Counted from the first letter of the stretch, positions 8,245-40,202 are shown. The stretch: 64,000 bases of DNA from Minisyncoccia bacterium (GCA_041742965.1 JBGTNQ010000010.1:38079-102078), one strand, 5' to 3'. Numbers and translations: made by a program. The notes: generated by a model from the letters alone, not told the origin.

Positions 8245-8380
8245 AAAAAAACTCTAACATAGGAGTAGGGAATGAGGAATAGGGAGGGAAAGAATAAAGA
8301 ATAAGGAATGACGAATAAGGAGCGGGGATTTATTGTAAAAAAGAAACCGCCCGATAGAGCTGGACGGCTCTTTCGGGCGG

Positions 8381-8668
8381 TTAAGGCCACCGCCTCAAAT
8401 CACCACAGTAAACTTTTTTTTCGGAACTAACGCCACAATCTCCCCAGATCATCAGAACCTCTCCGCTGTCCGGTAGGTCGAAGGAGACCCGCTGTTCCGG
8501 CACGAAGGTTTCCCTCCATTTTGAGGTGAGACCGGCTCCGTCAACTGTCCCGATGACAACAACGGTCATCGGATCGGTGTGAGCGGAGGGAGCTTTCTCC
8601 TGATTTGAGAAAGCAAAATACAAGAGCGCAGTGAAGAAGCCACTCGCAAACCAAAGCGCATTTCGCAT
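8381..8668 (-). CDS. Hypothetical secreted protein (95 aa), GC-rich cassette-type gene
   Basis: GAGGGA ribosome-binding site 4 nt before ATG 8668. Signal peptide. GC-rich. Terminator ccgcccga...tcgggcgg at 8343-8383. Confidence 0.45.
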   Translation of the reverse strand: MRNALWFASGFFTALLYFAFSNQEKAPSAHTDPMTVVVIGTVDGAGLTSKWRETFVPEQRVSFDLPDSGEVLMIWGDCGVSSEKKVYCGDLRRWP

Positions 8669-8757
8669 TGTTCCCTCAGGGTTGATTGTTAGGACTGTTC
8701 AAGATCTACTTCTAATTATATCACACTATATTTAAAAATGCAAGGACAAAAATAACC

Positions 8758-10647
8758 CTAAGACAAAAGGCTTTCGGGGTCTATTTTCACTGATATTGCA
8801 GGGGAAAGACCTTTTAATTTTTCTAAGAGATTCGTATCAGGCCAAGAAGCGGACTCAAGTCTAAAGAGAATATTTATCACCGCATTTCCTCGTCTGCTCA
8901 AATTTTTGCTTTCAAATGGGGCAGGGTTCCATTCCTTGAAATATTCCAAGAGTCTTTCTGTTTCTTTTTCCACAACACTACGCTTTCCTTCTACACTCAG
9001 TTTTATAAACAAAGAGAAAGGAGGGTATTTAAATTTTTTCCTCTCCTCAATTTCTTGTCGGTAAAAATCTATTAGATTTCCGTTTAAAGCATTATTAAAA
9101 AGTGTCTCGTCTCCGTTGCGTGTCTGGATGAGAAAGATCTTCCCGGCTTTGGCGCGCATAGATAGAAGTAGATAAAATATTTTTTCATTAATACGAAAAT
9201 CAGGAACCATAAATAATGCATCCATAGATGCCACGGCTACATTTTCAACTGGCTTCGAAAGGTGAAGCAGAGCCATCTCTGTGCCGACCAATATACTTCC
9301 AGGGGTGTTTTCAAATTTTTTCATAATATCTGAAGCCCTTTTTTCTGTTGAGGCGCTTTCTTTGTCCAACCGAAAGACTTTGGCTTCTGGGAAAAGTTTT
9401 TTTATTTCTTTTTCTACGAGTTCTATGCCGATACCTAGGGTTTCAAGTTTCCAACTATCACAGTGGGTACACCTCTCTGATGTGCTTCTCTCTTCGCCAC
9501 ATTTGTTACAGGAAAAAATATTTTCATCTTTTCTAGCAAATAAAGTTACTGGGGCTCCACACTGTTTACACACCACCACTTGTCCGCAATCTCCACACAC
9601 AGTTACAGGGGCGAGGCCTTTTCTACCACAAAAAATAAAAAGGTTTTCATTTTCTTCTTTTGTTTTATCTATCAAGGCTTCTAGTTCACGGGATATTACT
9701 CTGAACTCTTCGGTAAATAGACCACGAGGAAGTTTCATATCAACCAGAAGATTTCTACTCGAAGAAAGCATGCGAAGTTTAAGGGGAAAAAATTCTGCAT
9801 ATTCCTCCGTCTGCTCTTTATAGAGAGTCTCAACTGAAAGCATTAGGTCGCCCATAATGAGTTTGACGCCCATAGCGCGGGCAAAATTTCTGACGAACAC
9901 TCGCATATCGATATAGGGTCTTGTTTGGGTTCTATATGATCTTGAATTTTCTCTATCCAAAACTATACTTCCCAAGTCACCACGGGCTACTGACAAAAAT
10001 GATGGTGTGCCTATGATGAGGATGGGGTGTCCTTCCTCAGATATTAGACGCAGAGATTCAGTAAAGTCCTTTTTTGAAAGACCGCTATGCAATACACAGC
10101 TGTATTGCTCTATGCCTTTTTCCAAAGTATTTTTGGTCCTACGGATATCTTCGGCTGTTGGTAGGCAAAAGAAAACGGATGAATTTTTGGCGAATTCTCC
10201 GCGTATAAAACTTTTGTAATGAGCGAAGCGTTCGATGTCAACATCTTGTATTACTAAAAATTCTTTTTTTGTTTTTTTGTCACCCTCTTCCGGTTGATGT
10301 GATACTAGCTTTGCATTTTCTAAAACGAGTTTAGGTATGATGGTCTGCAATACAGCGCCCGTAGAAGAGGCGTATATTTCCGCTGTTTCAAGTGCTGATT
10401 TGAGCAAAGCAGAAGATAGAAAATGTTTATTTTTTATTGAGCCGATTTTTTTTAATGCATACGCAGAAGACTTTATTTCGGATTTCGAGAGAGTAACTTC
10501 TTGCTCTTCTATCACAATAGCGTGGGCTGTTTTTTTACGAAGGGGGATAGAGACCAAAGAGCCCAAGGGAATACCATCAGCTCCAAAGTATGAGAGGGTT
10601 TCCTTTGATATTCCTTTGGCTATAGGTATTACTTTATAGAGTTTCAT
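8758..10647 (-). CDS. priA: Primosomal protein N' (PriA)-like protein with degenerate helicase motifs
   Basis: PriA-like N-terminal domain, core helicase region (LHSGLS..., IIGTPSF, PRYxxRxxA-like) and C4 zinc ribbon (CGDCG...CKQCG...CNKCG...CTHCD). I find no Walker A GSGKT, and DEEH is replaced by DREN. Confidence 0.6.
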   Translation of the reverse strand: MKLYKVIPIAKGISKETLSYFGADGIPLGSLVSIPLRKKTAHAIVIEEQEVTLSKSEIKSSAYALKKIGSIKNKHFLSSALLKSALETAEIYASSTGAVLQTIIPKLVLENAKLVSHQPEEGDKKTKKEFLVIQDVDIERFAHYKSFIRGEFAKNSSVFFCLPTAEDIRRTKNTLEKGIEQYSCVLHSGLSKKDFTESLRLISEEGHPILIIGTPSFLSVARGDLGSIVLDRENSRSYRTQTRPYIDMRVFVRNFARAMGVKLIMGDLMLSVETLYKEQTEEYAEFFPLKLRMLSSSRNLLVDMKLPRGLFTEEFRVISRELEALIDKTKEENENLFIFCGRKGLAPVTVCGDCGQVVVCKQCGAPVTLFARKDENIFSCNKCGEERSTSERCTHCDSWKLETLGIGIELVEKEIKKLFPEAKVFRLDKESASTEKRASDIMKKFENTPGSILVGTEMALLHLSKPVENVAVASMDALFMVPDFRINEKIFYLLLSMRAKAGKIFLIQTRNGDETLFNNALNGNLIDFYRQEIEERKKFKYPPFSLFIKLSVEGKRSVVEKETERLLEYFKEWNPAPFESKNLSRRGNAVINILFRLESASWPDTNLLEKLKGLSPAISVKIDPESLLS

Positions 10648-10790
10648 ATTGGTTCTGTTCTCTTGAGTTCAACCTTCATACTAAAGAGATAGGGGTTATT
10701 TTACAAATCCTTCATTTATCTAAAAGAGTGGGTTTCTTGTCTTTTAGGCTTGTAAGCTATAAGCTACAATCAATAAGATTTAAAGTAAAA

Positions 10791-11804
10791 ATGTCTCTAT
10801 TTTCTAAAAAACTCGGTATTGATTTGGGAACTACAAGTGTCTTGGTCTTTGTGCCTGGGAGGGGGATCGTTCTGAATGAACCCTCAGTTGTGGCTATATC
10901 AGAGGAAGATAATAGGATATTGGCAATAGGTATTGATGCAAAAGAGATGATAGGTAAAACTCCAGAGTCTATTGTGGCATATCGCCCGATGAAAGATGGG
11001 GTTATCGCTGACTATCGTGTTACAGAGGCAATGCTTAGGTATTACATAGGCAAAGCCCTTGGTAAGTGGAGTATATTTAAGCCAGAAGTTTTAATATCCG
11101 TACCCGCTGGAGTTACTTCAACAGAAAGAAGGGCTGTGGTAGAGGCGGCGATGAAAGCAGGGGCCAAAAATGCTTATGTAGTGAAGGAGCCTATCTTGGC
11201 CGCTATTGGTGCTGGTATTCCGATTCACGAACCCATAGGCCATATGATAGTAGACATTGGTGGAGGAACCACTGATGTGGCGGTGATCTCTTTGGGCGGT
11301 ATCGTGTCATCTACTTCAGTTAAATGTGCTGGTAATCGTATTGATGCTGCTATTGCTGACTACATAAAGAAGACTTTTAATCTTGCTGTCGGCGACAAAA
11401 CTGCTGAAGAGATAAAAATAAAAATTGGTTCCGCCATTCCTTTGGACGAAGAGCTCTCTATGAATATAAAGGGGCGGGATTATGTTCTAGGTCTTCCTCG
11501 TTCCGTAGAAATAAAAACAAATGAAATCACTAAAGCTATAGGTAAGGAGCTTCGAGAAATGATTAAGGCCATAAAGGATGTTTTGCAAGAAACCCCACCA
11601 GAGCTTTCTTCAGACATTATAGACCGCGGGATTATTATGACTGGTGGTTCGTCTCAGCTTAGAAATTTACCAGAACTTGTTTTTCGTCGCACTGGAGTGA
11701 AGGCTGTTTTGGCAAAAGATGCCCTTTATTGTGTTGCTCGTGGTACTGGTATTGCTCTGGAACATTTGGATACATATAAGAAGAGTATAATTGCGAAAAG
11801 ATAA
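10791..11804 (+). CDS. mreB: Rod-shape determining protein MreB (paralog 1, stand-alone)
   Basis: LGIDLGTTSVLVFV...NEPSVVAI actin-like ATPase motifs. Start chosen at MSLFSKKLGIDLGT; the ORF track extends to 10728. Confidence 0.85.
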   Translation: MSLFSKKLGIDLGTTSVLVFVPGRGIVLNEPSVVAISEEDNRILAIGIDAKEMIGKTPESIVAYRPMKDGVIADYRVTEAMLRYYIGKALGKWSIFKPEVLISVPAGVTSTERRAVVEAAMKAGAKNAYVVKEPILAAIGAGIPIHEPIGHMIVDIGGGTTDVAVISLGGIVSSTSVKCAGNRIDAAIADYIKKTFNLAVGDKTAEEIKIKIGSAIPLDEELSMNIKGRDYVLGLPRSVEIKTNEITKAIGKELREMIKAIKDVLQETPPELSSDIIDRGIIMTGGSSQLRNLPELVFRRTGVKAVLAKDALYCVARGTGIALEHLDTYKKSIIAKR

Positions 11805-11829
11805 TTTCCGTGCTTCGCACGGTTCGATT

Positions 11830-11927
11830 AAAACTCCTTGTGAAAAACACACATATCCCGTTTCTACGGGATTGCTCCGCTCGCCCCAGAGTGCTGGGAC
11901 TGCGCGAGGTTTTTCACAAGGAGTTTT
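11830..11927. repeat. 98-bp element with 19-bp perfect terminal inverted repeats enclosing two internal hairpins (MITE-like or structured ncRNA)
   Basis: aaaactccttgtgaaaaac ... gtttttcacaaggagtttt. Internal cccgtttctacggg and cccagagtgctggg hairpins. GC-rich and non-coding. Confidence 0.4.
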
Positions 11928-12031
11928 GATGTTTTTGGGAAATGTTTTCTCAAGCCGTGTTTCGGGTGGTTTTATGTAAATGAAGGCCCCCACGCGACGC
12001 GTGAGCGGGCATTTTTATAGATTGCTCTAAT

Positions 12032-12066
12032 AAGCTATTAGCTATAAGCTATTAGCTATAAGCTAA
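12032..12066. repeat. Tandem 14-bp direct repeat (aagctattagctat x2.5) containing the AGCTATAAGCT promoter-like motif
   Basis: aagctattagctat aagctattagctat aagctaatcc immediately upstream of holB. Confidence 0.6.
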
Positions 12067-12072
12067 TCCAGC

Positions 12073-12756
12073 ATGAATCTCTCTCTTCACATAAAACCCG
12101 AAGCGCTTCACCACGCATATTTAATCGTTGGTGAGAAGGATCCGACAAGGGACGCTATTCTCAAGTTCATAAAAGATGAAATAAGTTTTGCGACCAGAGC
12201 CAATCCCGATTTTTGGTTTGAGGAGCACAGCAGTGTACCAATCGAACTAGCGCGAGCGATAAGTGATTTTCATATTCAAAAACCATTTCAGGGGGATAGG
12301 AAAATCTTTGTTTTGATTGCGGGCACGGTTACCGTCGAAGCGCAAAATGCATTGTTGAAACTTTTTGAGGAACCCATTGCCGGTAATCATTTTTTTCTTG
12401 TGATGAATGATGACCGCACCATTATTCCAACTCTGCGCTCTAGAATGCAGAGTGTGATTTTAGAAAGGGCGGGAGACAGTGACTTGGGAAAAGAATTTTT
12501 AAAGTCTCCTATTTCGGAGCGACTTGGAATGATTGAAGATATAGTAGAAAACAAAGATAAAGAAAAATCTAAAAAGCTTGTTAAATCCATAACAGAAGCT
12601 TTATACGTCAGCCTCGGTAATGAAAAAGATCTGAAAGATTGGTCTCAAGTTTTTAAAAACCTTCTGAAAGCAGATGACTACCTTTCAGACAGGGCCCCCT
12701 CTGTAAAAATGCTTTTGGAGAACCTCGTTTATACAATTCCTACCAAAAAACTCTAA
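12073..12756 (+). CDS. holB: DNA polymerase III delta-prime subunit-like (short form)
   Basis: LLKLFEEP and TLRSRMQ (SRC-like) motifs of clamp-loader delta-prime. Confidence 0.65.
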   Translation: MNLSLHIKPEALHHAYLIVGEKDPTRDAILKFIKDEISFATRANPDFWFEEHSSVPIELARAISDFHIQKPFQGDRKIFVLIAGTVTVEAQNALLKLFEEPIAGNHFFLVMNDDRTIIPTLRSRMQSVILERAGDSDLGKEFLKSPISERLGMIEDIVENKDKEKSKKLVKSITEALYVSLGNEKDLKDWSQVFKNLLKADDYLSDRAPSVKMLLENLVYTIPTKKL

Positions 12757-12794
12757 GGGCTTTGTTTTTCAGGCTTTTTTGTTAATATATTCTA

Positions 12795-13346
12795 ATGACA
12801 TACGATTTTACCCATCTAAAAAAGAAGATTAGCGAAGTAGAAGATTGGCTCAAAAAAGAGCTTTCTCAAATTCGTACAGGTCGAGCTACTCCAATAATAC
12901 TCGACTCAATATCTGTAGAATCATATGGCTCTTATATGGCCATCAATCAGTTGGCCGGTATTACCATTGAGGATCCAAAAACTATTAGGGTTGTTCCTTG
13001 GGATATGTCTCAGGTGAAAAATATTGAAAAGGCCGTAGTAGATTCGGGATTGGGGCTTTCTGTTTCAGTAGATGAAAGAGGGCTCAGGGTTATTTTCCCC
13101 GAATTAACAGCAGATAGACGAACCTCTCTGGCAAAAATTGCAAAACAAAAGCTTGAGGAGGCACGTGTTTCACTTCGTCAAGAGAGGGAAAAGGTACGAG
13201 AGGATATTCAAGAAAAAGAAAAGAAGGGCGGAATGGGAGAGGACGATAAATTTCGTTTTAATGCCGAGTTACAGAAACTTATAGATGAAGCGAACAAAAA
13301 TCTAGATCTCTTGGCAGAGCGAAAGGAGAAGGAAATTTTGGAATAA
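12795..13346 (+). CDS. frr: Ribosome recycling factor
   Basis: Full-length RRF signature (LSQIRTGRATPIILDSISVESYGSYMAINQLA...). Confidence 0.9.
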   Translation: MTYDFTHLKKKISEVEDWLKKELSQIRTGRATPIILDSISVESYGSYMAINQLAGITIEDPKTIRVVPWDMSQVKNIEKAVVDSGLGLSVSVDERGLRVIFPELTADRRTSLAKIAKQKLEEARVSLRQEREKVREDIQEKEKKGGMGEDDKFRFNAELQKLIDEANKNLDLLAERKEKEILE

Positions 13347-13408
13347 AGGAATGGCGAATGGTGAATAAGGTAATGAGGAGTGGAGAAGGTAAAAAACAAT
13401 AAACACAA

Positions 13409-14500
13409 ATGTCTATAATTATTTTTATTATTATATTGGCGATACTCATATTTGTTCACGAACTGGGACATTTTATAGTTGCCAAGAAGTCGGGTATAAA
13501 GGTTTCCGAGTTTGGAATAGGTTTTCCTCCCAAGCTTTGGGGTATTAAAAAGGGCGAGACAGAATACACTTTGAACGCTATTCCTTTTGGTGGTTTTGTG
13601 AAGATATTTGGAGAAGATCCAGACGAAGAAGCCCTCTCTGGTCCAGAAAAAAACAGAAGTATTACAAGTAAATCTCGTCCTATTCAGGCAGCTGTCTTGG
13701 TGGCCGGTGTGACTTTCAATATTATATTTGCCTGGCTCCTTATCTCTATTGGTTTTATGATAGGTCTTCCAACTTCTACCGCCCACGAAGGTAGGGGTGT
13801 GGTAGAAAACCCACGGACCGTTATCCAGAGTGTCTCTCCAAATTCCCCCGCAGAAAGAGCTGGTATAAAATCTGGAGATTCTATTGCTCAAATATCTTCC
13901 GGAGTTTATGTGGCAAATGAAGTGACTCCAGAAACTGTATCTAATTTTATTGAGGCTCATGGTGATGAAGAAATTTTGATTAATTTGCAAAGAGGTAAAG
14001 ATCTTCTGACTGTTTCATTGAATGCAGAAGAGGGGGTCGTGGCGGGCAAACTTGCTGTTGGTATTTCTATGGACACCATTGGAACCTTAAGTCTTCCAAT
14101 TCATTATGCTTTCTGGGAAGGAGCCAAAACAACAGGAACAGTTCTTTATTTTGTGACCGTGGGCATTTTATCTTTCTTAGGTGACGCTATTGTCGGACAA
14201 GGCGACCTCTCTCAAGTGACCGGTCCTGTAGGAATAGTGGGTATCGTGAGTGATGTCTCAACTTTGGGTTTTGTGTATTTGCTATCTTTCACAGCCTTGA
14301 TATCTCTTAACCTTGCGGTCATAAATCTATTGCCGTTTCCAGCTCTCGATGGAGGTAGACTTGTAATCGTATTTATAGAATCAATCATCCGAAGGCCACT
14401 TAGTCCAAAAATTCTTAATTGGGTGAATGGGGCAGGTTTCATCGTCCTCGTGCTTTTGATGCTTGTGGTTACCGCGCACGATATTTGGAAATTATTCTAA
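13409..14500 (+). CDS. rseP: RIP metalloprotease RseP (site-2 protease, M50)
   Basis: HELGHF zinc motif, PDZ domain and the C-terminal NLLPFPALDGG motif. Confidence 0.9.
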   Translation: MSIIIFIIILAILIFVHELGHFIVAKKSGIKVSEFGIGFPPKLWGIKKGETEYTLNAIPFGGFVKIFGEDPDEEALSGPEKNRSITSKSRPIQAAVLVAGVTFNIIFAWLLISIGFMIGLPTSTAHEGRGVVENPRTVIQSVSPNSPAERAGIKSGDSIAQISSGVYVANEVTPETVSNFIEAHGDEEILINLQRGKDLLTVSLNAEEGVVAGKLAVGISMDTIGTLSLPIHYAFWEGAKTTGTVLYFVTVGILSFLGDAIVGQGDLSQVTGPVGIVGIVSDVSTLGFVYLLSFTALISLNLAVINLLPFPALDGGRLVIVFIESIIRRPLSPKILNWVNGAGFIVLVLLMLVVTAHDIWKLF

Positions 14501-14671
14501 TATAGATTCTCGGCTCGGAAATGAAAAAGATTGCTTTTTCATTTCCCTACGCCTCCGATAAAGATACAGCGGCACGCGGTTGCTCTGTGTCGCCAATAAA
14601 AATATCAACACGCTAATTTGGCCATGTAAATGTTTTTTGCCTTGCCCACCTTTCTCCTGTATTATTGGGTC

Positions 14672-15910
14672 ATGCGACAGTCACAACTCTTCACCAAAAC
14701 CAGAAAAGAAAGCCCAAAGGATGAGGTGGCAAAAAATGCTGACCTTTTGATCAGGGCAGGTTATATACATAAAGAAATGGCAGGGGTTTACTCTATTCTA
14801 CCTCTAGGTTTACGGGTAATGAATAAAATAGAAGAAATCATCCGAGAGGAGATGAATGACTTGGGTGGTATTGAAATGAAGACAAGTGTCTTACAAAATA
14901 AAGAAATTTGGGAAAAAACAAATAGATGGGATGACGAGGTTGTAGATAATTGGTTTAAAACAAAATTAAAAAATGGCGGAGAGGTCGGACTGTCTTTTAC
15001 TAATGAAGAAGCTTATTCAAATATATTAAAACAATATGTAAATTCTTATAAAGATCTACCGGTTTATCCTTATGATTTTAAAAGTATCTTTAGAAATGAG
15101 ACGAGAAGTAAATCTGGGATTTTGAGAGGAAGGGAATTTTATTGGAAAGCTCTATATTCCTTCTCTCGTACCCAAGAAGAGCATGACGATTTCTATGAAA
15201 AATCAAAAATTGCTTATAAAAATATTTTCAATCGAGTTGGTATCGGAGAAAGTACATTCATCACCTTTGCTTCGGGCGGTACATTCAGTAAATATTCTCA
15301 CGAATTTCAAACTATAACTTCATCTGGCGAAGACATCATTTACCTTGATAAAAAGAAGGGAATAGCTATAAACAAGGAAGTCTACATTGATGAGATTATT
15401 GAAGAGTTGGGTCTAAAAAAGGCGGATCTTGTTGAAGAAAAGGCAATAGAAGTGGGTAACATTTTCCCTCTAGGTACCAAGTTTTCAGAACCTATGAACT
15501 TGTTGTTTACTGATGACAAGGGAGAAAAAAAACCAGTGATTATGGGCAGTTATGGTATAGGTCTGGGAAGACTTATGGGGACTGTGGTGGAGGTGCTTTC
15601 AGATGAAAAGGGAATAGTGTGGCCTGAAACCATCGCTCCTTTTGGTGCACACCTTTTGGAAATTCCAAGCAAAGATAGTAATGTGAAAAAAGTAGCCGAA
15701 GAGGCTTACGAGACCTTAAAAAATAGTGGCATTGAGGTTCTATATGATGATAGGGATATAAGGGCTGGAGAAAAATTTGCAGACGCAGATCTTATTGGTA
15801 TTCCTCGTCAAATTATTGTCTCAGAGCGTGGGGTAAATGCTGGGACCCTTGAAATGAAAGATAGAAAAACAGGAGAAACTTCTGTTACGCACATAGAAGA
15901 TTTTAAATAA
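14672..15910 (+). CDS. proS: Proline--tRNA ligase (no editing domain)
   Basis: Class II aaRS. N-terminal SQLFTKTRKESPKDEVAKNADLLIRAGYI. Start placed at MRQSQ rather than the upstream hydrophobic extension. Confidence 0.8.
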   Translation: MRQSQLFTKTRKESPKDEVAKNADLLIRAGYIHKEMAGVYSILPLGLRVMNKIEEIIREEMNDLGGIEMKTSVLQNKEIWEKTNRWDDEVVDNWFKTKLKNGGEVGLSFTNEEAYSNILKQYVNSYKDLPVYPYDFKSIFRNETRSKSGILRGREFYWKALYSFSRTQEEHDDFYEKSKIAYKNIFNRVGIGESTFITFASGGTFSKYSHEFQTITSSGEDIIYLDKKKGIAINKEVYIDEIIEELGLKKADLVEEKAIEVGNIFPLGTKFSEPMNLLFTDDKGEKKPVIMGSYGIGLGRLMGTVVEVLSDEKGIVWPETIAPFGAHLLEIPSKDSNVKKVAEEAYETLKNSGIEVLYDDRDIRAGEKFADADLIGIPRQIIVSERGVNAGTLEMKDRKTGETSVTHIEDFK

Positions 15911-15913
15911 TAC

Positions 15914-25763: not shown

Positions 25764-25845
25764 GGGGTGGGGAAGCTGTTAGCTTATAGCTGTTAGGGGG
25801 AAAATAAGGAAAACGAAAGAAGAATGGGGAATAAATAAATAAAAA
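25764..25845. repeat. ~80-bp intergenic composite element, copy 1 (AGCTGTTAGCTTATAGCT palindromic core plus purine-rich tail)
   Basis: ggggaagctgttagcttatagctgttagggggaaaataaggaaaacgaaagaagaatggggaataaa. Near-identical copy at 27156-27240. Confidence 0.6.
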
Positions 25846-25850
25846 TAGGA

Positions 25851-27155: not shown

Positions 27156-27240
27156 GGGGCAGGGAAGCTGTTAGCTTATAGCTTAGGGGGAAAAGAAGAA
27201 AAACGAAAGAAGAAAGAAGAATGGGGAATAAAAACCCTTT
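27156..27240. repeat. ~80-bp intergenic composite element, copy 2
   Basis: gggcagggaagctgttagcttatagcttagggggaaaagaagaaaaacgaaagaagaaagaagaatggggaataaaaaccc. Confidence 0.6.
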
Positions 27241-27246: not shown

Positions 27247-27279
27247 CCTCCACTTGGAAACCGAGTTTCCAAGTGGGGG
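27247..27279. repeat. Palindromic hairpin element, copy A (core cacttggaaa-ccgag-tttccaagtg)
   Basis: 14-bp arms with a 5-nt centre, 44 nt upstream of tRNA-Glu. Same core as copies at 28626 and 31323. Confidence 0.65.
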
Positions 27280-27322
27280 AAGCTTGAAGCTCGAAGCTAA
27301 AAGCTGTAAGCTTCTTGTTTAA

Positions 27323-28625: not shown

Positions 28626-28662
28626 CCCCACTACTTGGAAACTCAGTTTCCAAGTAGTGGGG
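28626..28662. repeat. Palindromic hairpin element, copy B (ccccactacttggaaa-ctcag-tttccaagtagtgggg)
   Basis: 16-bp perfect arms. The ORF-track ORF 28635 (METQFPS...) begins by translating this palindrome and is rejected at its N-terminus. Confidence 0.65.
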
Positions 28663-29457: not shown

Positions 29458-29540
29458 TAGTGGAGTTTGGTTTTCTGGGTAAGGCCCCGCGCTAGTCCAT
29501 TTCAAACGGCTAGTGCGGGGCATTTTGCTATAATAAAAAT

Positions 29541-29810
29541 ATGAAAAGAAGAAGTTTGTTCACAGAACGTGTGTATAAAGTAGTGAAATCGATTCCTAAA
29601 GGAGAGACTTTGTCGTATGGCGGGGTAGCAAAAAGGGCAGGTAACCCCGGGGCTTCACGTGCCGTAGGAACTTTGATGAAAAACAATTTTGATAAAACAG
29701 TTCCGTGCCACAGAGTAATAAAGTCTGATGGTAGTTTAGGCAATTATAATCGCTCCGGTGGGACAGAGGCAAAGAGGAGAATGCTTTTGAAGGAGGGATG
29801 GAGGGGGTAG
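29541..29810 (+). CDS. ogt: Methylated-DNA--protein-cysteine methyltransferase, stand-alone DNA-binding/active-site domain
   Basis: GETLSYGGVAKRAGNPGASRAVGTLMKNN...PCHRVIKSDGSLGNY contains the PCHRV active-site motif. No N-terminal domain. Confidence 0.8.
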   Translation: MKRRSLFTERVYKVVKSIPKGETLSYGGVAKRAGNPGASRAVGTLMKNNFDKTVPCHRVIKSDGSLGNYNRSGGTEAKRRMLLKEGWRG

Positions 29811-29870
29811 GGAGAATGACGAATAAGGAATAATGAATGAGGAAGAGGAGGGGAAAACGAATAAGAAACA

Positions 29871-29914
29871 TTTCAACATTCTCAAGAATGTTGAAATGTT
29901 TCTTAGATATGTTT
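29871..29914. terminator. Bidirectional terminator hairpin, second member of the 19-bp-stem hairpin family
   Basis: aagaaacatttcaacattc-tcaa-gaatgttgaaatgtttctt between convergent genes. Differs from the copy at 196-241 by paired compensatory changes. Confidence 0.6.
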
Positions 29915-30094: not shown

Positions 30095-30222
30095 TTTGTA
30101 AAGAATAGGGAAAAACGAATGATGAATAATGAGGAAACAGGAACAGATTCATTCTAATATAAAAATGGAATAAAAAAACACGAGGCGACCGAAGTCGCCT
30201 CGTTTCTACTGACCGCTACTTT

Positions 30223-31238: not shown

Positions 31239-31322
31239 TTTTTGCCTCGTTTCTAGTTGCGGTTTAGGTACAAAGATTCTCTACAAATACAATCATTTTT
31301 TACAAAAAAGTCAATGAAACAA

Positions 31323-31357
31323 GCCCATACTTGGAAACTCAGTTTCCAAGTATGGGC
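31323..31357. repeat. Palindromic hairpin element, copy C (gcccatacttggaaa-ctcag-tttccaagtatgggc)
   Basis: 15-bp perfect arms at the distal edge of the GC-rich island. The ORF-track ORF 31331 (METQFPS...) is its translation artefact. Confidence 0.65.
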
Positions 31358-31377
31358 TGCCTGTATTTAATTTGCTT

Positions 31378-31830: not shown

Positions 31831-31981
31831 AGGAACATTATACAGAAAAAGGCACGAATGATGAATATGTGTAGCTGTCAGATTACTGCTGTTAGGTGGA
31901 AAAGAATGACGAATAAGTAGTGAGGAATGATGAATAATGATGGGGAATAAGGAAAAATGAAATTCTTGGTATAATAGAGGT

Positions 31982-33043
31982 ATGTCAGAAAGCACTTTTC
32001 TTATTGTTTTTCTTTTGGTTATTCTGGGGTTAAACGCCGTTATTCTGTGGCGCCTTTTTATCCGTGAAAAACAGGGTGGGGAATCGGGTGATGGGTTACT
32101 TCTTATTCAGAACCAAGTGAACGCTTTGGCGAATACTCTGGACAGCAAGCTTTCAGAAAACGCAGACAGACTTCATCAGTCTCTGCAACACCAATCAAGC
32201 GAGTCTGTGAAGATTATTCGTGATATCACGGAAAAACTCACTCGTCTTGATGAGACAAATAAACAAGTGGTTTCCTTTGCAGATCAATTGCAGTCTTTGC
32301 AAGATATTTTGAAAAATCCAAAACAGCGTGGGATACTCGGAGAATATTATTTGGAGACACTTCTAAAAAATGTTTTACCACCAAAAAGTTTTCAAATGCA
32401 GTATCCTTTCAACGATGGGACGATTGTGGATGCGGTAGTGTTTGTGAAAGATAAGGTGATACCGATAGATTCTAAGTTTTCTCTTGAAAACTACAATCGT
32501 TTGGTGGAAGAGAAAGACCCGCTAGAAAAGGAGCGCTTGGAAAAGGCGTTTCGCGCTGACTTGAAAAACAGAATAGATGAAACTTCAAAGTATGTTAAGC
32601 CAAGCGAGGGGACCATGGATTTTGCTTTTATGTTTATTCCGCACGAAGCAATATATTATGATTTACTCATATCTCAGGTGGGTGCGGTGAAGGTGAATAC
32701 AAGAGATTTGATTGAATATGCGTTTAAAGAAAGGAGGGTAATTATAGTTTCTCCAACTTCTTTTCTGGCATATCTCCAGACCGTGCTTCAAGGACTCAAG
32801 GCACTTCAGATAGAGGAAACGGCACAGGATATTATAAAACGCGTTAGTGACCTCGGAAAACATATTAAAAGTTATGAAGAGTATCATGACAAACTTGGCA
32901 CATCTCTTGGTACCGTGGTTAGCCATTTTAACTCATCCCGAAAAGAGCTTGGAAAAATAGATAAAGATGTTTTGAGAATTACTGGAACAGCTGTGGGGGT
33001 TGAGCCGATTGTTCTTGAAAAGCCAGTACTAGAGGACGAGTAA
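31982..33043 (+). CDS. rmuC: DNA recombination protein RmuC
   Basis: N-terminal TM, long coiled coil and RmuC nuclease-like C-domain (VIPIDSKF..., DFAFMFIPHEAIYYDLL). Confidence 0.85.
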   Translation: MSESTFLIVFLLVILGLNAVILWRLFIREKQGGESGDGLLLIQNQVNALANTLDSKLSENADRLHQSLQHQSSESVKIIRDITEKLTRLDETNKQVVSFADQLQSLQDILKNPKQRGILGEYYLETLLKNVLPPKSFQMQYPFNDGTIVDAVVFVKDKVIPIDSKFSLENYNRLVEEKDPLEKERLEKAFRADLKNRIDETSKYVKPSEGTMDFAFMFIPHEAIYYDLLISQVGAVKVNTRDLIEYAFKERRVIIVSPTSFLAYLQTVLQGLKALQIEETAQDIIKRVSDLGKHIKSYEEYHDKLGTSLGTVVSHFNSSRKELGKIDKDVLRITGTAVGVEPIVLEKPVLEDE

Positions 33044-33754: not shown

Positions 33755-33785
33755 ACAAAAATCCCCAGTATCTGGGGGTTTTTGT

Positions 33786-34400
33786 TTAGCTTCTATTTTT
33801 CAAAGCGTTGGCTATAGTGTCTGAATCTGAATATTCAAGTTCGGTACCAGTGGAGAGTCCACGCCCAAGCATTGATACTTTTATATTAAACTTTTCTGTA
33901 AGTGGCCTTATGCGGTTTGTCACAAATTCAGCCGTGTGCTCACCGTCAGTTGTGGCGTTGGTGGCTATGATTATTTCTTTTAAATCTTCGGACCTTTTTT
34001 CAATGAGGGAAAGTAGTTCACGGATTCGTATCTTTTCATCTGGCTCTTTTTCAAGAATTGGTACGACACCTCCGAGTATAAAATATAGACCATCGTAGCT
34101 TTTGGTGCGTTCTATGTTTTCCATATCAACATCTCTTGATACCAGAAGAAGCTTACTAGCGTCTCTGGAATTTAAGGAACAGATTGAGCACATATCTTGC
34201 CGACCGCCATTTTTCGCAAAGTAGCGGAAACATGAAGAACATATTGAGCTTTCTCGTTTTAATGTTTCAAGTTCTCGAACAAGGTCTTTTATATAATCCT
34301 CTCTTTCAGAAACTAGAAAATAAGCAAAACGCTCTGCTTGTTTTGGGCCGATGCCTGGGAATCTGCGGAATAGCTCTATAATGCGTGAGAAGGAGGACAT
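33786..34400 (-). CDS. recR: Recombination protein RecR
   Basis: HhH (FPGIGPKQAERFAYFL), C4 zinc finger, Toprim. Start at M13 of the ORF-track ORF. Confidence 0.85.
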   Translation of the reverse strand: MSSFSRIIELFRRFPGIGPKQAERFAYFLVSEREDYIKDLVRELETLKRESSICSSCFRYFAKNGGRQDMCSICSLNSRDASKLLLVSRDVDMENIERTKSYDGLYFILGGVVPILEKEPDEKIRIRELLSLIEKRSEDLKEIIIATNATTDGEHTAEFVTNRIRPLTEKFNIKVSMLGRGLSTGTELEYSDSDTIANALKNRS

Positions 34401-34453
34401 GATGTGGGGGAATGAATGAGGAATAAGGAATGACAAATAATGAAAAGAAAAAA

Positions 34454-35836
34454 TTAAAATGCCTCGAATTCTTTCTCTGAACCGCCGAAGTTACTTTTAT
34501 CAATACTTTGGAATGTTGCTTTTTTGTCATTGAAGAAGAGCTCCACTTTTCCAGTCTCACCATTTCGATGTTTTTCAATTAGTATTTCGGCAATGTTCGT
34601 GCGTTCTGATTGTTCTTTATATTTGTCTTCTCGGTGAATAAACATCACTACATCGGCATCTTGCTCGATAGAACCTGAGTCACGGAGGTCTGAAAGTCGA
34701 GGTTTACCACCGCGCTGTTCCACCGCACGCGAGAGTTGGGAGAGGGCGATTACAGGAACATCTAGCTCTCGGGCTAGATTTTTTAATGAGCGAGAAATTT
34801 CTGTAACCTGCTGGACCAGATTGTCAGAGCTTCGACTTTGAGTTGGAACCATAAGCTGTAGGTAGTCTACGATAAGGAGACCCAACCCCTTTTCGCTTTT
34901 TAGTCTCCTAGCCACAGAGCGCATTTTTAATATGTTGCTTCCCGGTTGGTCGTCTATATATATGGGCGCTTGAGAGAGTCTGTCTAATGACTGTCTTATG
35001 GCGGCGAAATCACCCTCATCTGAGAGTTTCCCAGTACGGAGTTTCCAAGCGTCTACATTTGATTCAGCAGCAAGCATACGGTCTACTAGCTGTTGGGAGC
35101 TCATCTCAAGGGAAAATATACCAACTGGAACCTTGTGATTTATGGCAGTTTGACGGGCAATATCTAGAGCGAGAGAGGTTTTTCCCATTGATGGTCTGGC
35201 CGCTAAAATGATGAGGTCTGATTTTTGAAAACCAGCGAGCTTGTGATCGAGTTCTTTGAAGCCCGTTGGTACTCCACGCAGTTCACCTTTGTTGTTGTGG
35301 AGATTTTCTAATCTTTCAAAAGCTTCTACCAGTTCGTCTTTCATTGCTACGAATTTGTGTACACCGCCACTTTGTGTGATGTCGTATATATGTTTTTCTG
35401 CCTTGTCTAAAAGATCTTCAAGTTCTGACGACTCGTCGAATCCTAAGTGGGCAATAAATTCTGATGCATCTATGAGTCGACGCATCATATATTTTTTTTG
35501 AATTATTTCGGCATAGTGTTTTATGTTTGCAGAGGAGGGAACAGTGTTGATGATTTCTGTCAGATAACTGGCTCCACCGACCTGATCGAGAAGGTTCTTT
35601 TCTTTGAGTCGAGAAGAAAGAGAAAGGAGGTCTATAGGCGTGCGTTTAGTGAAGAGGTCGAGCATTGAGTCATAGATGATAGCGTGACGCTCAGCGTAAA
35701 AAGACTTTGGAGTTACAAAATCTATAATTTCATATATGGAGTCTGGGCGGAGCATGACAGAACCCAAGAGGGCCATTTCTGCTTCTGTATTTTGTGGAGG
35801 AATTCTAACTTTTTCTCTGATGATGTGTTCGGACAT
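34454..35836 (-). CDS. dnaB: Replicative DNA helicase DnaB
   Basis: N-terminal domain plus RecA-like domain with Walker A (ARPSMGKTS), no intein. Confidence 0.9.
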   Translation of the reverse strand: MSEHIIREKVRIPPQNTEAEMALLGSVMLRPDSIYEIIDFVTPKSFYAERHAIIYDSMLDLFTKRTPIDLLSLSSRLKEKNLLDQVGGASYLTEIINTVPSSANIKHYAEIIQKKYMMRRLIDASEFIAHLGFDESSELEDLLDKAEKHIYDITQSGGVHKFVAMKDELVEAFERLENLHNNKGELRGVPTGFKELDHKLAGFQKSDLIILAARPSMGKTSLALDIARQTAINHKVPVGIFSLEMSSQQLVDRMLAAESNVDAWKLRTGKLSDEGDFAAIRQSLDRLSQAPIYIDDQPGSNILKMRSVARRLKSEKGLGLLIVDYLQLMVPTQSRSSDNLVQQVTEISRSLKNLARELDVPVIALSQLSRAVEQRGGKPRLSDLRDSGSIEQDADVVMFIHREDKYKEQSERTNIAEILIEKHRNGETGKVELFFNDKKATFQSIDKSNFGGSEKEFEAF

Positions 35837-35934
35837 GTGGGAATTTTAACACAGCGGGGTAGTTATATGAAAAAGGTAAAAATATGGACAAAGTGTGGGT
35901 AATTTGGGGACACGTACAGCGGAGGAGCTAACAG

Positions 35935-37323
35935 CTATAAGCTAACCCTTGGTCCTTCAGGGAGGTCTTCTACTGCATATCCTAGGGATTTGAGTTCGTC
36001 ACGGAGTTTGTCTGATGTTTTCCAGTCTTTGTTTTTTCTAGCGTCTTCTCTTTTGTTTATGATGTTTTGAATATTTTCTGGGAGATTAGTAGTTGAAACA
36101 TCTTCTAATTTATTAGCACTGCCCTCTATTCCAAGGCCGAGTAATTTATCAAATTCACCAATAGTTGTTTTCTTATCTTCTACCGATACTCGGTCATCTT
36201 TTATAAGTTCCCAAAGAAGGGCGATTGATTTTGGTGTATCGAGGTCATCTTCCATTGCTTCAATAAGATTCTTTTTGTATCCCTCATTAATTTTTCCGCC
36301 GTCTGGGAGAGTTTTCCAAAATTTAATAATTTTTAAATAAGCTGTTTGCGCAGATTCTAGTGCTTCAAAAGAAAAGTTAATTGGGCTTGAGTATCTTGCC
36401 TGAAGGAGCCAGTAGCGATAGGCGAGTGGAAGAAACTTTTTTTCAGATAAGGTCTTTAAGGTTATGAAGTTTCCTTCCGACTTTGCCATCTTGTCATTTT
36501 CTACATTCACAAAAGCATTGTGTAGCCAATAATTTACAAATTGGCATTCACAAGCATTTTCAGATTGAGCTATTTCATTGTTGTGGTGTATGGGAGCGAG
36601 GTCTATTCCTCCTGTGTGAATATCAAAGTGGTTGCCCAAGTATTTTCTGGCCATAGCTGAACACTCTATGTGCCAGCCGGGGAAACCCTTGCCCCAAGGA
36701 CTTCCAAATCCAAGCTCAGGATTTATTTTCCAGAGAGCAAAATCACGCGAATTTTTCTTTTCAGAGTTGATTCCAATACGGGAGTGCTCATCTGTTTCAT
36801 CCGAATTTCCACCAAGCTTTCCGTAATGCGGGTCTTTCCCTGTATCAAAATAAATGCCATCGCTTGTTTTGTATGCGAAACCTTTTTCTTCCAAGGTTTT
36901 TATGAGGTTTATATCTTCAGCAATGTGTTCGCTGGCTTTTGGAAGAGAGTGCGGGGCAAGGATATTCATTTCCACTAAATCTTTTTTGAAAGACTCGGTG
37001 TAAAAGTCGGCCAACTCTTTCATGGCTTCTAAAGTTAAAGGTTTCCCTTCTCTTTTGAGACCTTTGGTCATCTTGTCTTCTCCTTCATCTTCACCTCCGG
37101 ACAGGTGTCCAATATCAGTGATGTTTATCACCTGTTTTACAGAATAGCCGGTGTATTCAAAAGTTCGGCGCAATATATCTGCAGTAGTCCAAGAGCGGAG
37201 GTTACCAATATGCACATAGTCATAGACAGTAGGTCCGCAGTGGTACATACCCACCGCTCCATTTTGGATTGGTTCAAATTTTTCCTTTTTGCCTGTTGGG
37301 GTGTTAGTAAGAAAGAGTGACAT
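35935..37323 (-). CDS. cysS: Cysteine--tRNA ligase
   Basis: HIGN (HIGH) and KMAKS (KMSKS) motifs and a Zn-binding Cys pattern. Confidence 0.9.
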   Translation of the reverse strand: MSLFLTNTPTGKKEKFEPIQNGAVGMYHCGPTVYDYVHIGNLRSWTTADILRRTFEYTGYSVKQVINITDIGHLSGGEDEGEDKMTKGLKREGKPLTLEAMKELADFYTESFKKDLVEMNILAPHSLPKASEHIAEDINLIKTLEEKGFAYKTSDGIYFDTGKDPHYGKLGGNSDETDEHSRIGINSEKKNSRDFALWKINPELGFGSPWGKGFPGWHIECSAMARKYLGNHFDIHTGGIDLAPIHHNNEIAQSENACECQFVNYWLHNAFVNVENDKMAKSEGNFITLKTLSEKKFLPLAYRYWLLQARYSSPINFSFEALESAQTAYLKIIKFWKTLPDGGKINEGYKKNLIEAMEDDLDTPKSIALLWELIKDDRVSVEDKKTTIGEFDKLLGLGIEGSANKLEDVSTTNLPENIQNIINKREDARKNKDWKTSDKLRDELKSLGYAVEDLPEGPRVSL

Positions 37324-37406
37324 TTATGTGGGGAAGAATGACGAATAAGGAATAAGGAATAAAGATAAAATCGCTATTTGTTATTCACTACTCATCATTC
37401 TTAATT

Positions 37407-38321
37407 CTAAAGCCATTTTTTGTATTTGAAGAACATAAACATAAAGAATGTGGCAACAAGCATGATACTAATAACAATCCAGAAATCATCTGATCGTCCA
37501 ACAATTGGTATAAAAGATGTGTTCATACCAAATATTGAAGCAATAAGCGTGAGTGGAAATGTTATGAAGGCTATGATTGTTAATGTCTTCATAATCTCAT
37601 TTTGTTTTGTAGAAAGCAGGGAGTTATTGGTCTCACGGAGTTCAGAGATTAGCTCCAGGTTGCTTCTAAGGGCATTGTGCATTTTCTTGTATTCATGAAT
37701 AATCCTCTTCACATGATAGGCAAAGTGGTCACCAAATAATTTTAGGCCAAGAGTTTCTAGGTTTTCTAAAACATCTCTATGAAAATCTGTATATTTCTTG
37801 AAGTTCAGTAGGTCTCTTGAAGGTATAGAAAGTTCAATAACCATTTCTCTTTCTTTTCCAGCGAATATTCCTTCCTCAATCCTACTTACTGATGAGCCAA
37901 TATATTCTAGTTCGTTGAAAAGTGAACTATATATTTCTTGTAAAATGCCGAAGAAAATCACTCCAGTGCAATCTTCTTCAAAATCTCTATCTAGAATTTC
38001 TTTTACCTCTACCACCTTGGCGAATTTTTCCAAGGCATCTATGGTGTCATATCTAACTGTAATTAAAAAATCTTTTCCAATAATAAAATCTAACTCCTGT
38101 TTACTGTCTCCGGTGTGAGTGTGTTTGAATACAGGGAAGTGGAGGATTAGATAGAGGAAATCGCGGTGGGCCTCTACACGAGACTTCGGTGACTCCGAGG
38201 TCATCTCATTTGCCACCAGTGGGTCTATTGAGAATTCTTCCATTACAGCACGAACTTCTTCCGTTGTTGGGTGTTTGAGGTCTACCCAGACAGTATCTTT
38301 GTGTTTGTATCTATTGACCAT
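37407..38321 (-). CDS. corA: Magnesium/cobalt transporter CorA
   Basis: C-terminal two TM helices with the GMN motif (IFGMNTSFIP). The 5-prime end is uncertain: the ORF-track start at 38408 is TTG, so ATG at 38321 is chosen. Confidence 0.7.
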   Translation of the reverse strand: MVNRYKHKDTVWVDLKHPTTEEVRAVMEEFSIDPLVANEMTSESPKSRVEAHRDFLYLILHFPVFKHTHTGDSKQELDFIIGKDFLITVRYDTIDALEKFAKVVEVKEILDRDFEEDCTGVIFFGILQEIYSSLFNELEYIGSSVSRIEEGIFAGKEREMVIELSIPSRDLLNFKKYTDFHRDVLENLETLGLKLFGDHFAYHVKRIIHEYKKMHNALRSNLELISELRETNNSLLSTKQNEIMKTLTIIAFITFPLTLIASIFGMNTSFIPIVGRSDDFWIVISIMLVATFFMFMFFKYKKWL

Positions 38322-38446
38322 ATGCGCCAAGTATATCACGGCTCTAGGTGTCTTACTTTTCCACAATTGGTAATAATGTTTCTCTATATAAGTTATTGTG
38401 GTTAACAATGATATGGTAGTATTATCGTAGTAAGGAATATTTTTCT

Positions 38447-39676
38447 ATGAGACCCTCTCAACGGAACGCCATATCTTTCGTCTTAATAGCCCTTCTTTTA
38501 TGGGGCGCTTTTTCTCTAGGGTTGGACAGAGGTGAAAGGAGGGCGAATTCTCTCGATTTAATAAATGCAGTTGAAAACAAAGATTTATATAAGCCAGAAG
38601 CAGTTGATTTTTCCGCTTTTTGGAAAGCATGGAATATCATAAATGAAAAATATGTTCCTGCCAGTTCTACAGACGCTCAGGTTAGTAATGAAGAAAAAAT
38701 GTTTGGGGCCATACAGGGATTGGTTTCATCTTTGGGAGACCCGCATACGGTCTTTTTTCCTCCAGTAGAAAATGAAATATTCCAGAGTGACGTAAGGGGT
38801 AATTTTGAAGGAGTGGGGATGGAGGTGGGTATGCGCGATGGTGTCTTGACGGTTATTTCACCACTCAAGGACACTCCCGCTTATCGTGCTGGTGTAGAAA
38901 CAGGGGACAAGATTATTCGTATAGATGACAAAATAACGACAAACCTCACCACAGATGAAGCCATATCTCTTATAAGGGGCAAAAAGGGGACTACCGTCAC
39001 CATTTCTGTGATTCGCAATGGATCTAGCGAGCCGATAGTCATACCTATAGTCAGGGATACAATAAATATACCCACTATTAGAACGGAGCAGATGAGTAAC
39101 GGTATCTTTTTGATAGAGCTTTATAATTTTTCTGCTAATTCTCCAAATCTTTTTCGTTCTGCTTTACGTGAATTTGTTAGTTCGGGTAAACACAAACTTC
39201 TTTTGGATTTACGGGGTAACCCGGGTGGGTATTTAGAAGCGTCTATTGATATGGCTAGCTGGTTCCTACCTCCTGGTAAGGTAATAGTCAGAGAGGATTT
39301 TGGTGGTAATAAAGACGAGCACCTATATAGGAGTAAGGGGTATGACATATTCAATAATAATTTAGACCTCGTCATTTTAATTGATGGCGGTTCTGCTTCT
39401 GCATCAGAGATTTTGGCGGGTGCGCTCAGGGAACATGGTGTCGCCACTTTGGTAGGAGATAGAACATTTGGAAAAGGGTCAGTGCAGGAGCTTGTGGATG
39501 TTACTTCAAATACTTCCATAAAAGTGACTATCGCCAGATGGCTTACTCCCAACGGGGTTTCCATATCTGACGGTGGTTTAGAGCCGGATGTCTTGGTCAA
39601 AGTAACTAGGGAGGATATTGAAGCGGGCCGTGATACTCAAATAGAGAAGGCTATTGAAATCTTGCTTTCTCAGTAA
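38447..39676 (+). CDS. ctpA: Carboxyl-terminal processing protease (S41)
   Basis: PDZ domain, S41 catalytic Ser (GGSASASE) and Lys region. Confidence 0.85.
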   Translation: MRPSQRNAISFVLIALLLWGAFSLGLDRGERRANSLDLINAVENKDLYKPEAVDFSAFWKAWNIINEKYVPASSTDAQVSNEEKMFGAIQGLVSSLGDPHTVFFPPVENEIFQSDVRGNFEGVGMEVGMRDGVLTVISPLKDTPAYRAGVETGDKIIRIDDKITTNLTTDEAISLIRGKKGTTVTISVIRNGSSEPIVIPIVRDTINIPTIRTEQMSNGIFLIELYNFSANSPNLFRSALREFVSSGKHKLLLDLRGNPGGYLEASIDMASWFLPPGKVIVREDFGGNKDEHLYRSKGYDIFNNNLDLVILIDGGSASASEILAGALREHGVATLVGDRTFGKGSVQELVDVTSNTSIKVTIARWLTPNGVSISDGGLEPDVLVKVTREDIEAGRDTQIEKAIEILLSQ

Positions 39677-39728
39677 AAGTCAGTACAATATCCACCACTT
39701 ACCAGACGCGAATTAATACGAAACAGTA

Positions 39729-40172
39729 ATGAAGGTTATTTTTTTAAAACAAGTGCCGAGTGCAGGGAATAAATATGAAGTAAAGAATGTATCTGATGGA
39801 TACGCTACTAATTTTTTGATTCCAAATGGTTTAGCTTTGGCTGCGACAGACAGCGCCCTCAAAAAAATACTTTCTCAGAAAGAACAAGAAGATTCAGAAA
39901 AAAAGGTTCATGAGGATTTGCTTTTGAAAAACATTAAGGACTTAGAAGGTGTGAGAGTTGAAATGAAAGAGCCGGCAAATGAACAAGGGCACCTTTTTGC
40001 TGGAATCCATGCTTCCGAAATTGTGCCAGTTATAAAAGAACAGACTCGTTTGGAAATTCTTCCTGAGCATATAAAACTTCCTAAACCAATAAAGGAGGTT
40101 GGAGAACACAAAATTTCTGTAAACATTCAAGATATTAAGGTGGAATTTATATTGGTAGTGACGGCGAGGTAA
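39729..40172 (+). CDS. rplI: 50S ribosomal protein L9
   Basis: MKVIFLKQVPSAGNKYEVKNVSDGYATNFLIPNGLA. Confidence 0.85.
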   Translation: MKVIFLKQVPSAGNKYEVKNVSDGYATNFLIPNGLALAATDSALKKILSQKEQEDSEKKVHEDLLLKNIKDLEGVRVEMKEPANEQGHLFAGIHASEIVPVIKEQTRLEILPEHIKLPKPIKEVGEHKISVNIQDIKVEFILVVTAR

Positions 40173-40202
40173 TGGGTGAATGATGAATGGGGAATAGTGA
40201 TA

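Follow-up and report, generated by a model that had tools for sequence, protein, structure and literature searches.

Ten short, purine-rich tandem arrays, all in the same orientation, lie in the intergenic DNA of a 64,000-nucleotide stretch from a Minisyncoccia bacterium (GCA_041742965.1, JBGTNQ010000010.1:38079-102078), hereafter the window. Built from degenerate copies of a 7-bp unit, they may represent, with a probability of about one half, a young, lineage-specific family of heptanucleotide simple sequence repeats that has been resized by slippage and has recently spread into the intergenic DNA of its host. Judging from DnaB homologues, this host is Zambryskibacteria-like (Candidatus Zambryskibacteria, Parcubacteria; Patescibacteria, or candidate phyla radiation (CPR)). 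The arrays belong to a known class, the intergenic heptamer microsatellites, with one unexplained property, their strict co-orientation in the window. The origin and role of heptamer microsatellites, the commonest long simple repeats in bacteria, are still puzzling. In this case a very young family occupies gaps between core genes of a reduced CPR genome, and close relatives reveal the ancestral state of these gaps, so that the birth of arrays becomes directly traceable.

A degenerate tandem heptamer

The exact 15-mer GAATGACGAATAAGG occurs at 8306, 29814 and 37336, with a one-mismatch copy at 31904, at the positions given in the original prediction. When up to two mismatches are allowed it has 12 matches in the 64-kb window, 12 of 12 on the + strand, against a shuffle expectation of 0.20. 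The underlying unit is a degenerate tandem 7-bp heptamer, GAATRRN, which mostly alternates between GAATGAN and GAATAAN (GAATRAN). A scan of the window for GAAT[AG][AG]NGAAT gives 22 matches on the + strand and 0 on the - strand, and GAATGNNGAATA is present in all ten sites when these are read directly. Arrays are 2-8 units long, with variable third, fifth and seventh positions. Period-7 or period-14 arrays are reported by Tandem Repeats Finder at 8289, 27192, 29821, 34414 and 37343. As head-to-tail copies of a 7-nt unit, longer or commoner than chance would provide, the arrays are heptanucleotide simple sequence repeats.

The arrays are devoid of secondary structure. The minimum free energy (MFE) is 0 kcal/mol for the six arrays folded on the + strand; on the - strand, where three were folded, two have an MFE of 0 and the third (37326-37375) one of -1.2 kcal/mol. 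Across the ten sites there are no visible conserved ends, terminal inverted repeats or imperfect palindromes of the type found in repetitive extragenic palindromic (REP) sequences or miniature inverted-repeat transposable elements. The arrays do not contain the four or more closely spaced runs of at least three Gs that define a G-quadruplex (G4); GGG runs are isolated, and most units are GAATGAN or GAATAAN. Both H-DNA (triplex) and G4 structures were rejected, as the units contain T and C and are without G-runs. Rfam and tRNA scans of the window returned two tRNAs only, with no RNA family at the arrays. The string TGACGAA fits the Spo0A-box consensus, TGNCGAA. This identity was rejected as a coincidence, since the central positions vary freely and Spo0A, known only from endospore-forming Firmicutes, is not expected in a CPR genome.

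Probable slippage and rapid turnover

The clearest trace of resizing is found around murF. An ~80-nt direct repeat with 84% identity between its copies (25764-25850 and 27156-27240) begins at the stop codons of a penicillin-binding protein (PBP) gene and of murF, thereby bracketing murF. One copy has exactly one 7-nt unit more than the other, and a 2-nt indel also distinguishes them. They provide direct evidence, in a single instance, of slippage in steps of one 7-nt unit. The arrays within these copies are the weakest of the ten sites (25800-25845 and 27195-27240), each with a single GAATGGGGAATA within a purine tract. As the two are copies of one ~80-nt element, the window holds about nine independent sites.

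A second tandem heptamer family, (AGCTNNN)n, consists of units such as ATAAGCT/ATTAGCT and AAGCTNN and has 12 matches where 0.15 are expected. Its members lie at 7458-7489, 12030-12065, 25774-25791, 27166-27183, 27281-27312 and 35926-35943, and the family is also found in intergenic gaps of a close relative (L120). Other Parcubacteria loci contain further heptamer arrays; several of these are built on GAAT or GAAA cores, and some are located just downstream of dnaB. The presence of (AGCTNNN)n in both the window and its relative, along with these additional arrays, shows a lineage-wide propensity for 7-bp tandem repeats.

The syntenic relatives used for comparison share 92% (L120-L123), 85% (L205, L206), 84% (L207) or 83% (L124) DnaB identity with the window. 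In all of them gene order is kept and the arrays are missing, save for one proto-array. At the cysS site, the only one with a counterpart there, the 92% relative has three units, GAATATA GAATGAT GAATAGG, in the same orientation. The gap between dnaB and recR, which contains an array in the window, measures only 21 nt in the 92% relative and has none. Additional dnaB neighbourhoods of Parcubacteria, about 0.95 Mb in all, contained only isolated 2-unit matches. The family thus shows the rapid turnover and poor conservation between relatives (83-92% DnaB identity) that characterize simple repeats.

The 92% relative L120 harbors a REP-like intergenic double-hairpin repeat, TAGCCCCGACG-N4-GTCGG..CCCGAC-N5-GTCGGGA, which the window does not have. 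This repeat is found in four gaps of L120 (3710-3949, 9707-10010, 14337-14463 and 15996-16200), co-oriented in four of four cases in the direction equivalent to the + strand of the window, and partly in the same gaps that hold arrays in the window. A different repeat family in some of the same gaps of so close a relative indicates that intergenic repeat content turns over quickly.

In the slippage model, replication slippage would both create arrays where they stand and change their length, 7 nt at a time, a generality extrapolated from the one instance beside murF. Turnover between close relatives would be fast, as is observed, and small gaps next to start and stop codons and to terminator hairpins would be filled irrespective of gene direction, as they are in the window. 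The arrays would be largely neutral, and any part they might play in the cell, for instance as an unstructured spacer or as A-rich DNA near promoters, would be secondary.

Gene context of the arrays

Neighboring genes were assigned by NCBIfam and Pfam scans and by synteny with annotated relatives. All arrays are intergenic once three over-long open reading frame (ORF) calls are corrected, with starts at 34400 for recR, about 31830 for yqeY and 37323 for cysS. The purine-rich strand is the + strand whatever the strand of the flanking genes, as had been proposed from the sequence: the arrays at 8255, 30098, 34405 and 37326 adjoin - strand genes, and the others + strand genes.

Four arrays are antisense to the adjacent gene (def, an ORF of ~63 aa, recR and cysS) and lie 3-10 nt from its - strand start codon. 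Array 1 (8255-8330, + strand), with about eight degenerate heptamers (GAATGAG GAATAGG ... GAATAAA GAATAAG GAATGAC GAATAAG), is flanked by a - strand terminator hairpin (8345-8370) and the start codon of def (8244, - strand). Array 6 (30098-30145, + strand; GAATAGG GAAAAAC GAATGAT GAATAAT GAGGAAA) is positioned between the start of the ~63-aa - strand ORF (codon at about 30093) and a - strand terminator (30180-30203). Array 8 (34405-34452, + strand; GGGGGAATGAATGAG GAATAAG GAATGAC AAATAAT) occupies the gap from the dnaB stop codon (34454) to the recR start codon, both genes being on the - strand. Array 9 (37326-37366, + strand; GTGGGGAA GAATGAC GAATAAG GAATAAG GAATAAA) begins 3-6 nt from the start codon of cysS (- strand), downstream of corA (- strand).

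Three arrays are in the sense orientation, preceding rseP, murF and tRNA-Glu. Array 2 (13340-13400, + strand; GGAATAA AGGAATGGC GAATGGT GAATAAG GTAATGA GGAG...) separates the frr stop codon from the rseP start codon (13409). Array 3 (25800-25845, + strand), a purine tract with terminal GAATGGG GAATAAA, is part of the ~80-nt element whose first bases are at the stop codon of the PBP gene, and the murF start codon follows 12 nt downstream. Array 4 (27190-27240, + strand) is the paralogous copy of array 3, one 7-nt unit longer, and comes after the murF stop codon; on its 3' side are a hairpin (27252-27274), (AAGCTNN)n repeats and then tRNA-Glu. Array 7 is found in the divergent gap between yqeY and rmuC. 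Its first part (7a, 31845-31870, + strand; GAATGAT GAATATG) is just upstream of, and antisense to, the yqeY start codon (- strand), and its second (7b, 31895-31960, + strand; GAATGAC GAATAAG TAGTGAG GAATGAT GAATAAT GATGGG GAATAAG) immediately precedes a TGGTATAAT box and the start codon of the rmuC-like gene (31982).

The remaining two arrays are located between a stop codon and a + strand terminator. Array 5 (29806-29870, + strand; GAATGAC GAATAAG GAATAAT GAATGAG GAAGAGG ... GAATAAG) separates the ogt stop codon (29810) from a terminator (29862-29905), and array 10 (40175-40202, + strand; GAATGAT GAATGGG GAATAGT) is found between the stop codon of rplI (L9; 40172) and a + strand terminator hairpin. 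The terminator 3' of ogt is a perfect palindrome with a 20-bp stem, a candidate bidirectional terminator; it is kept, with a few changes, in the 92% relative, where the purine tract before it differs in sequence. Beyond the range first noted there is an eleventh, related purine heptamer array of GAAAATA/GAAAGAT units (41431-41489, + strand), situated between the stop codon of a + strand gene and a - strand terminator hairpin (41490-41518).

Because their orientation is independent of gene direction (four antisense, three sense, one divergent and two at 3' ends), the arrays cannot be a ribosome-binding or 5'-untranslated region (UTR) feature, in agreement with the original prediction. A Shine-Dalgarno sequence or 5'-UTR element would be sense and upstream of a start codon, whereas four arrays are antisense and two lie between a stop codon and a terminator.

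Extended -10 boxes (TGnTATAAT) are found 6-10 nt before start codons, both in the window (31964-31984) and in several gaps of L120, and many genes are without a Shine-Dalgarno sequence. The arrangement suggests that leaderless or near-leaderless mRNAs may be common in the lineage.

Such promoters would lend themselves to a different explanation, in which the arrays are repeated sites for a lineage-specific nucleic acid-binding protein, either one that binds RNA or single strands or one that binds DNA near promoters, and act as promoter-upstream or 5'-leader elements of a small regulon, much as has been proposed for the TAACTGA repeats (see below). Eight of the ten arrays end about 3-27 nt from a start codon or tRNA gene, and with TGnTATAAT boxes 6-10 nt before the ATG and no Shine-Dalgarno sequence they would fall at about -10 to -80 of leaderless-type promoters. 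Their complete lack of structure would suit a single-strand binder, and the occurrence of the same heptamer in unrelated phyla (see below) is what a mobile binding protein that selects its sites might produce, an idea discussed in PMC4679880. However, + and - strand genes would read the motif in opposite senses, two arrays sit at 3' ends before terminators, and the neighbors (def, rseP, murF, tRNA-Glu, ogt, rmuC, recR, cysS and rplI) share no common theme. In addition, relatives with the same genes are without arrays, and no gene family recurs near the arrays in 119 listed loci of other phyla. A sigma-70 promoter scan is at background, with 27 found against 29.5 expected, and is uninformative. 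A binding-site role is accordingly regarded as rather unlikely, though worth keeping in mind.

Replication strand and clustering

GC skew on the + strand is positive across 1-50 kb. When the genes of the two strands are treated separately, the skew resolves into a replication component of about +0.095 and a coding component of about 0.064. As - strand genes in this interval also have positive + strand skew, the + strand is the leading strand (the template of lagging-strand synthesis). The purine strand of the arrays therefore coincides with the G-rich leading strand. At about 48000-51000 the skew changes sign where genes switch from + to - (convergent gap 50131-50497). To the right of 50 kb it is negative, with an inferred replication component of only about -0.02, and the window has no arrays on that side. 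A replication terminus near 50 kb is possible; a dif-like site sought at the skew switch near 50 kb was not found.

All of the roughly nine independent sites are on one strand (two-sided p about 0.004). The ten arrays fall within 32 kb and are absent from the other 26 intergenic gaps, including those of 1-8 kb and 41.5-50 kb in the same skew domain; a simulation puts the probability of such clustering at about 0.005-0.01. Outside the arrays, single GAAT[AG]A words in 1-50 kb number 32 on the + strand and 27 on the - strand and show no strand skew. The strand bias arises solely from the tandem intergenic arrays.

The bias had been likened to that of KOPS (FtsK orienting polar sequences) or Chi, or else to a unidirectionally inserted repeat. 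The latter comparison comes nearer the truth, while the former is not supported, given the lack of single-word skew, the clustering and the absence from relatives. One would expect a motif that serves a conserved translocase or recombinase to be dispersed, to occur inside genes and to be common to relatives. The arrays show none of these features: their words are not skewed throughout the replichore or inside genes, and the motif is not shared with related genomes across the ~0.95 Mb of Parcubacteria loci, isolated 2-unit matches aside. It is thus highly improbable that they are replication-oriented, architecture-imparting sequences of the KOPS/SRS (SpoIIIE recognition sequence) or Chi type that point to the terminus. 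In favor of that idea, the arrays without exception occupy the G-rich leading strand and are directed at the place near 50 kb where the skew changes sign, and the KOPS-type motif of Lactococcus is reportedly a purine heptamer as well, GAAGAAG. Both kinds of element share purine- or G-rich words on the leading strand, but KOPS, SRS and Chi are single 7-8-mers that run through genes along whole replichores and are common to related genomes, while the arrays are tandem, intergenic only, clustered and lineage-specific. Single words are without skew (32 versus 27), no arrays occur in the rest of the same skew domain, and their absence from syntenic relatives conflicts with the slow co-evolution of recognition motifs with their reader. 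The lack of a dif-like site and the small replication component beyond 50 kb also argue against it. Short co-oriented repeats in a single window should not be taken as KOPS- or Chi-like signals.

Transcription could also make orientation matter. In this scenario the arrays are polar elements that mitigate conflicts with replication, their orientation being selected so that head-on (- strand) transcripts carry the pyrimidine version, with weak RNA:DNA hybrids and Rho loading, and co-directional ones the purine version. Sites for Rho loading (rut sites) are C-rich, G-poor and unstructured, and the reverse complement of the arrays has the same properties, with an MFE of 0. Three arrays are located just downstream of - strand intrinsic terminators, consistent with back-up termination. 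Of 18 intergenic purine tracts in related Parcubacteria loci, 13 are found on the G-rich strand (12 of 16 when the replication component of the skew is used), although these loci are few, syntenic and not independent. Yet there are also arrays between dnaB and recR and immediately before cysS, positions at which ending transcription would do harm, and heptamer arrays in relatives follow the leading-strand rule in about three cases and break it in five. Given also the small sample of syntenic, non-independent loci, conflict mitigation is very unlikely.

A broader proposal is that intergenic heptamer arrays of this CPR lineage, and perhaps intergenic repeats generally, are locked to the direction of replication, with the purine strand always the lagging-strand template and a flip at origin and terminus. 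The purine-tract bias (13/18) and the co-orientation of the REP-like repeat (4/4) lend weak support to a replication link, and the inconsistent orientation of heptamer arrays in relatives counts against it. The proposal itself is improbable. If true, it would establish a new polar element made of tandem repeats rather than dispersed words, which might limit head-on transcription or R-loops, or mark strand-specific insertion or expansion at the fork.

Orientation relative to the fork could instead stem from transposition. A small non-autonomous mobile element might have left the arrays behind or carried them as cargo, inserting always in the same orientation, through single-strand transposition of the IS200/IS605 or REP-RAYT (REP-associated tyrosine transposase) type into the lagging-strand template, or through local hopping. 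They are uniform on the lagging-strand template, clustered and recently gained; the ~80-nt unit to which arrays 3 and 4 belong, and which combines (AGCTNNN) repeats with a purine array, is present in two copies; and the 92% relative has its REP-like hairpin family in four gaps, always in the window + strand orientation. What speaks against a mobile element is the absence of conserved ends, terminal or subterminal hairpins and target duplications, along with length and unit order that differ at every site. The window ORFs that were examined include no transposase or RAYT-like gene, and the cysS site resembles in-place divergence of an older proto-array. Such an origin seems improbable.

Heptamer arrays in other phyla

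Other carriers of the heptamer were profiled by scanning contigs of a genome collection with GAATGANGAATAANGAATRA, which returned at least 119 loci; all matches listed are from unrelated phyla. By tblastx, none of the 119 listed loci is a close relative of the window. Among the matches listed, GAATRAN arrays, the longest with 17 units or more, are found in Bacteroidota, Verrucomicrobiota, Acidobacteriota, Clostridia, Planctomycetota (68% GC), cyanobacteria and other CPR groups. Array orientation in these carriers is unrelated to local GC skew (73:74), and there is a 2:1 preference for the sense orientation of the flanking gene (39 versus 19). Neighboring arrays have the same orientation in 6 cases and opposite orientations in 5, and often form inverted pairs. 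The only gene family that recurs beside the arrays of the 119 listed loci is that of ABC-transporter ATPases, which was attributed to chance. A phage origin was rejected, as a viral collection contained just 13 matches. Literature searches with the heptamers as words yielded nothing relevant.

In many unrelated genomes (L003, L018, L024, L036, L050, L085, L108, L118 and L119) GAATRAN arrays come in pairs of opposite orientation, with a spacing of 40-250 bp and a short unique core in between. Each such pair could fold into a long hairpin, a layout unseen in the window. A metagenome-assembled genome of the Clostridia (L032, 57% GC) carries a GAATRAT array at 3162-3243, between def and fmt in a priA-def-fmt block. 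As def is also a neighbor of array 1, the two share a gene neighborhood, probably by coincidence.

Relation to known repeat families

Cyanobacterial short tandemly repeated repetitive (STRR) sequences, STRR1-3, are tandem heptamer families dispersed in the non-coding DNA of one lineage. The arrays of the window differ from them in sequence and phylum, and STRR arrays are longer and more regular.

Among simple repeats with units of 5-11 nt, those of 7 nt are the most abundant; they are sporadic and have been attributed to slippage, according to the summaries of Mrazek et al. 2007 in PMC4679880 and PMC4692102. Going by the same summaries, the arrays resemble these long simple sequence repeats in being tandem and 7-nt, mostly intergenic, sporadic and lineage-specific, and in rapidly changing length, but they are short (2-8 units), degenerate and confined to one strand in 32 kb.

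The GGGAATC repeats of Xanthomonas, like the GGGGA(T/C)T repeats of Nostoc, are intergenic, near ORFs and in all gene-orientation classes (PMC4692102). In rotated form, GAATCGG, the Xanthomonas unit shares the GAAT core, and some units in the window read GAATGGG. The Xanthomonas and Nostoc repeats form G4 structures, are evenly distributed between strands without leading or lagging preference, and mostly keep their positions between Xcc and Xac (PMC4692102), whereas the arrays described here are mostly without G-runs, unstructured, co-oriented and unconserved in relatives.

TAACTGA repeats have a patchy distribution across marine Beggiatoaceae, cyanobacteria and Bacteroidetes (PMC4679880). Like the arrays, they comprise 2-6 heptamer copies and occupy intergenic DNA, in many cases just a few nucleotides away from the start codon of a gene without a Shine-Dalgarno sequence. 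The TAACTGA repeats, however, are mostly forward relative to the downstream gene (PMC4679880), while the arrays have a different unit, GAATRAN, and ignore gene direction. The similarity is one of architecture alone, and the arrays do not belong to the TAACTGA type.

Several observations weigh against a slippage-driven repeat family as the full account of the arrays. Slippage alone predicts neither ten of ten arrays (about nine independent) on one strand nor their clustering within 32 kb. The same heptamer elsewhere bears no relation to GC skew, and neighboring arrays there are not co-oriented (6 versus 5, among the matches listed), nor do the GGGAATC repeats of Xanthomonas have a leading or lagging preference (PMC4692102). 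Eight start sites (seven start codons and the tRNA gene) are about 3-27 nt from arrays, which could reflect function, and a single slippage event is documented directly. Co-orientation and clustering, and with them the link to the replichore, are left unexplained by a slippage family. Since no orientation rule holds in other carriers or in Xanthomonas, something specific to this genome sets the orientation.

For the slippage family, uniform orientation would arise from a strand-asymmetric step in array birth, retention or local copying, rather than from a reader of chromosome polarity such as FtsK or RecBCD. Candidate causes of both orientation and clustering are strand-asymmetric birth or retention at the fork, short-range copying between nearby gaps, and selection connected with head-on transcription. 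A one-strand orientation that follows replication genome-wide would indicate a strand-specific mechanism of repeat birth or selection; a strand preference of this kind was sought in Xanthomonas and not found.

Further repeats in the window

A palindromic hairpin, ACTTGGAAAC-N-GAGTTTCCAAGT, with stems extended to 17-19 bp, is present at 27252-27274, 28633-28655 and 31329-31351, where zero copies are expected by chance. The three copies look like a small family of REP-like or terminator hairpins. Near the left end of the window, an in-frame GAC/GAA (Asp/Glu) triplet repeat (2331-2392) is located at the 3' end of an ORF (1791-2399) and encodes an acidic low-complexity tail.

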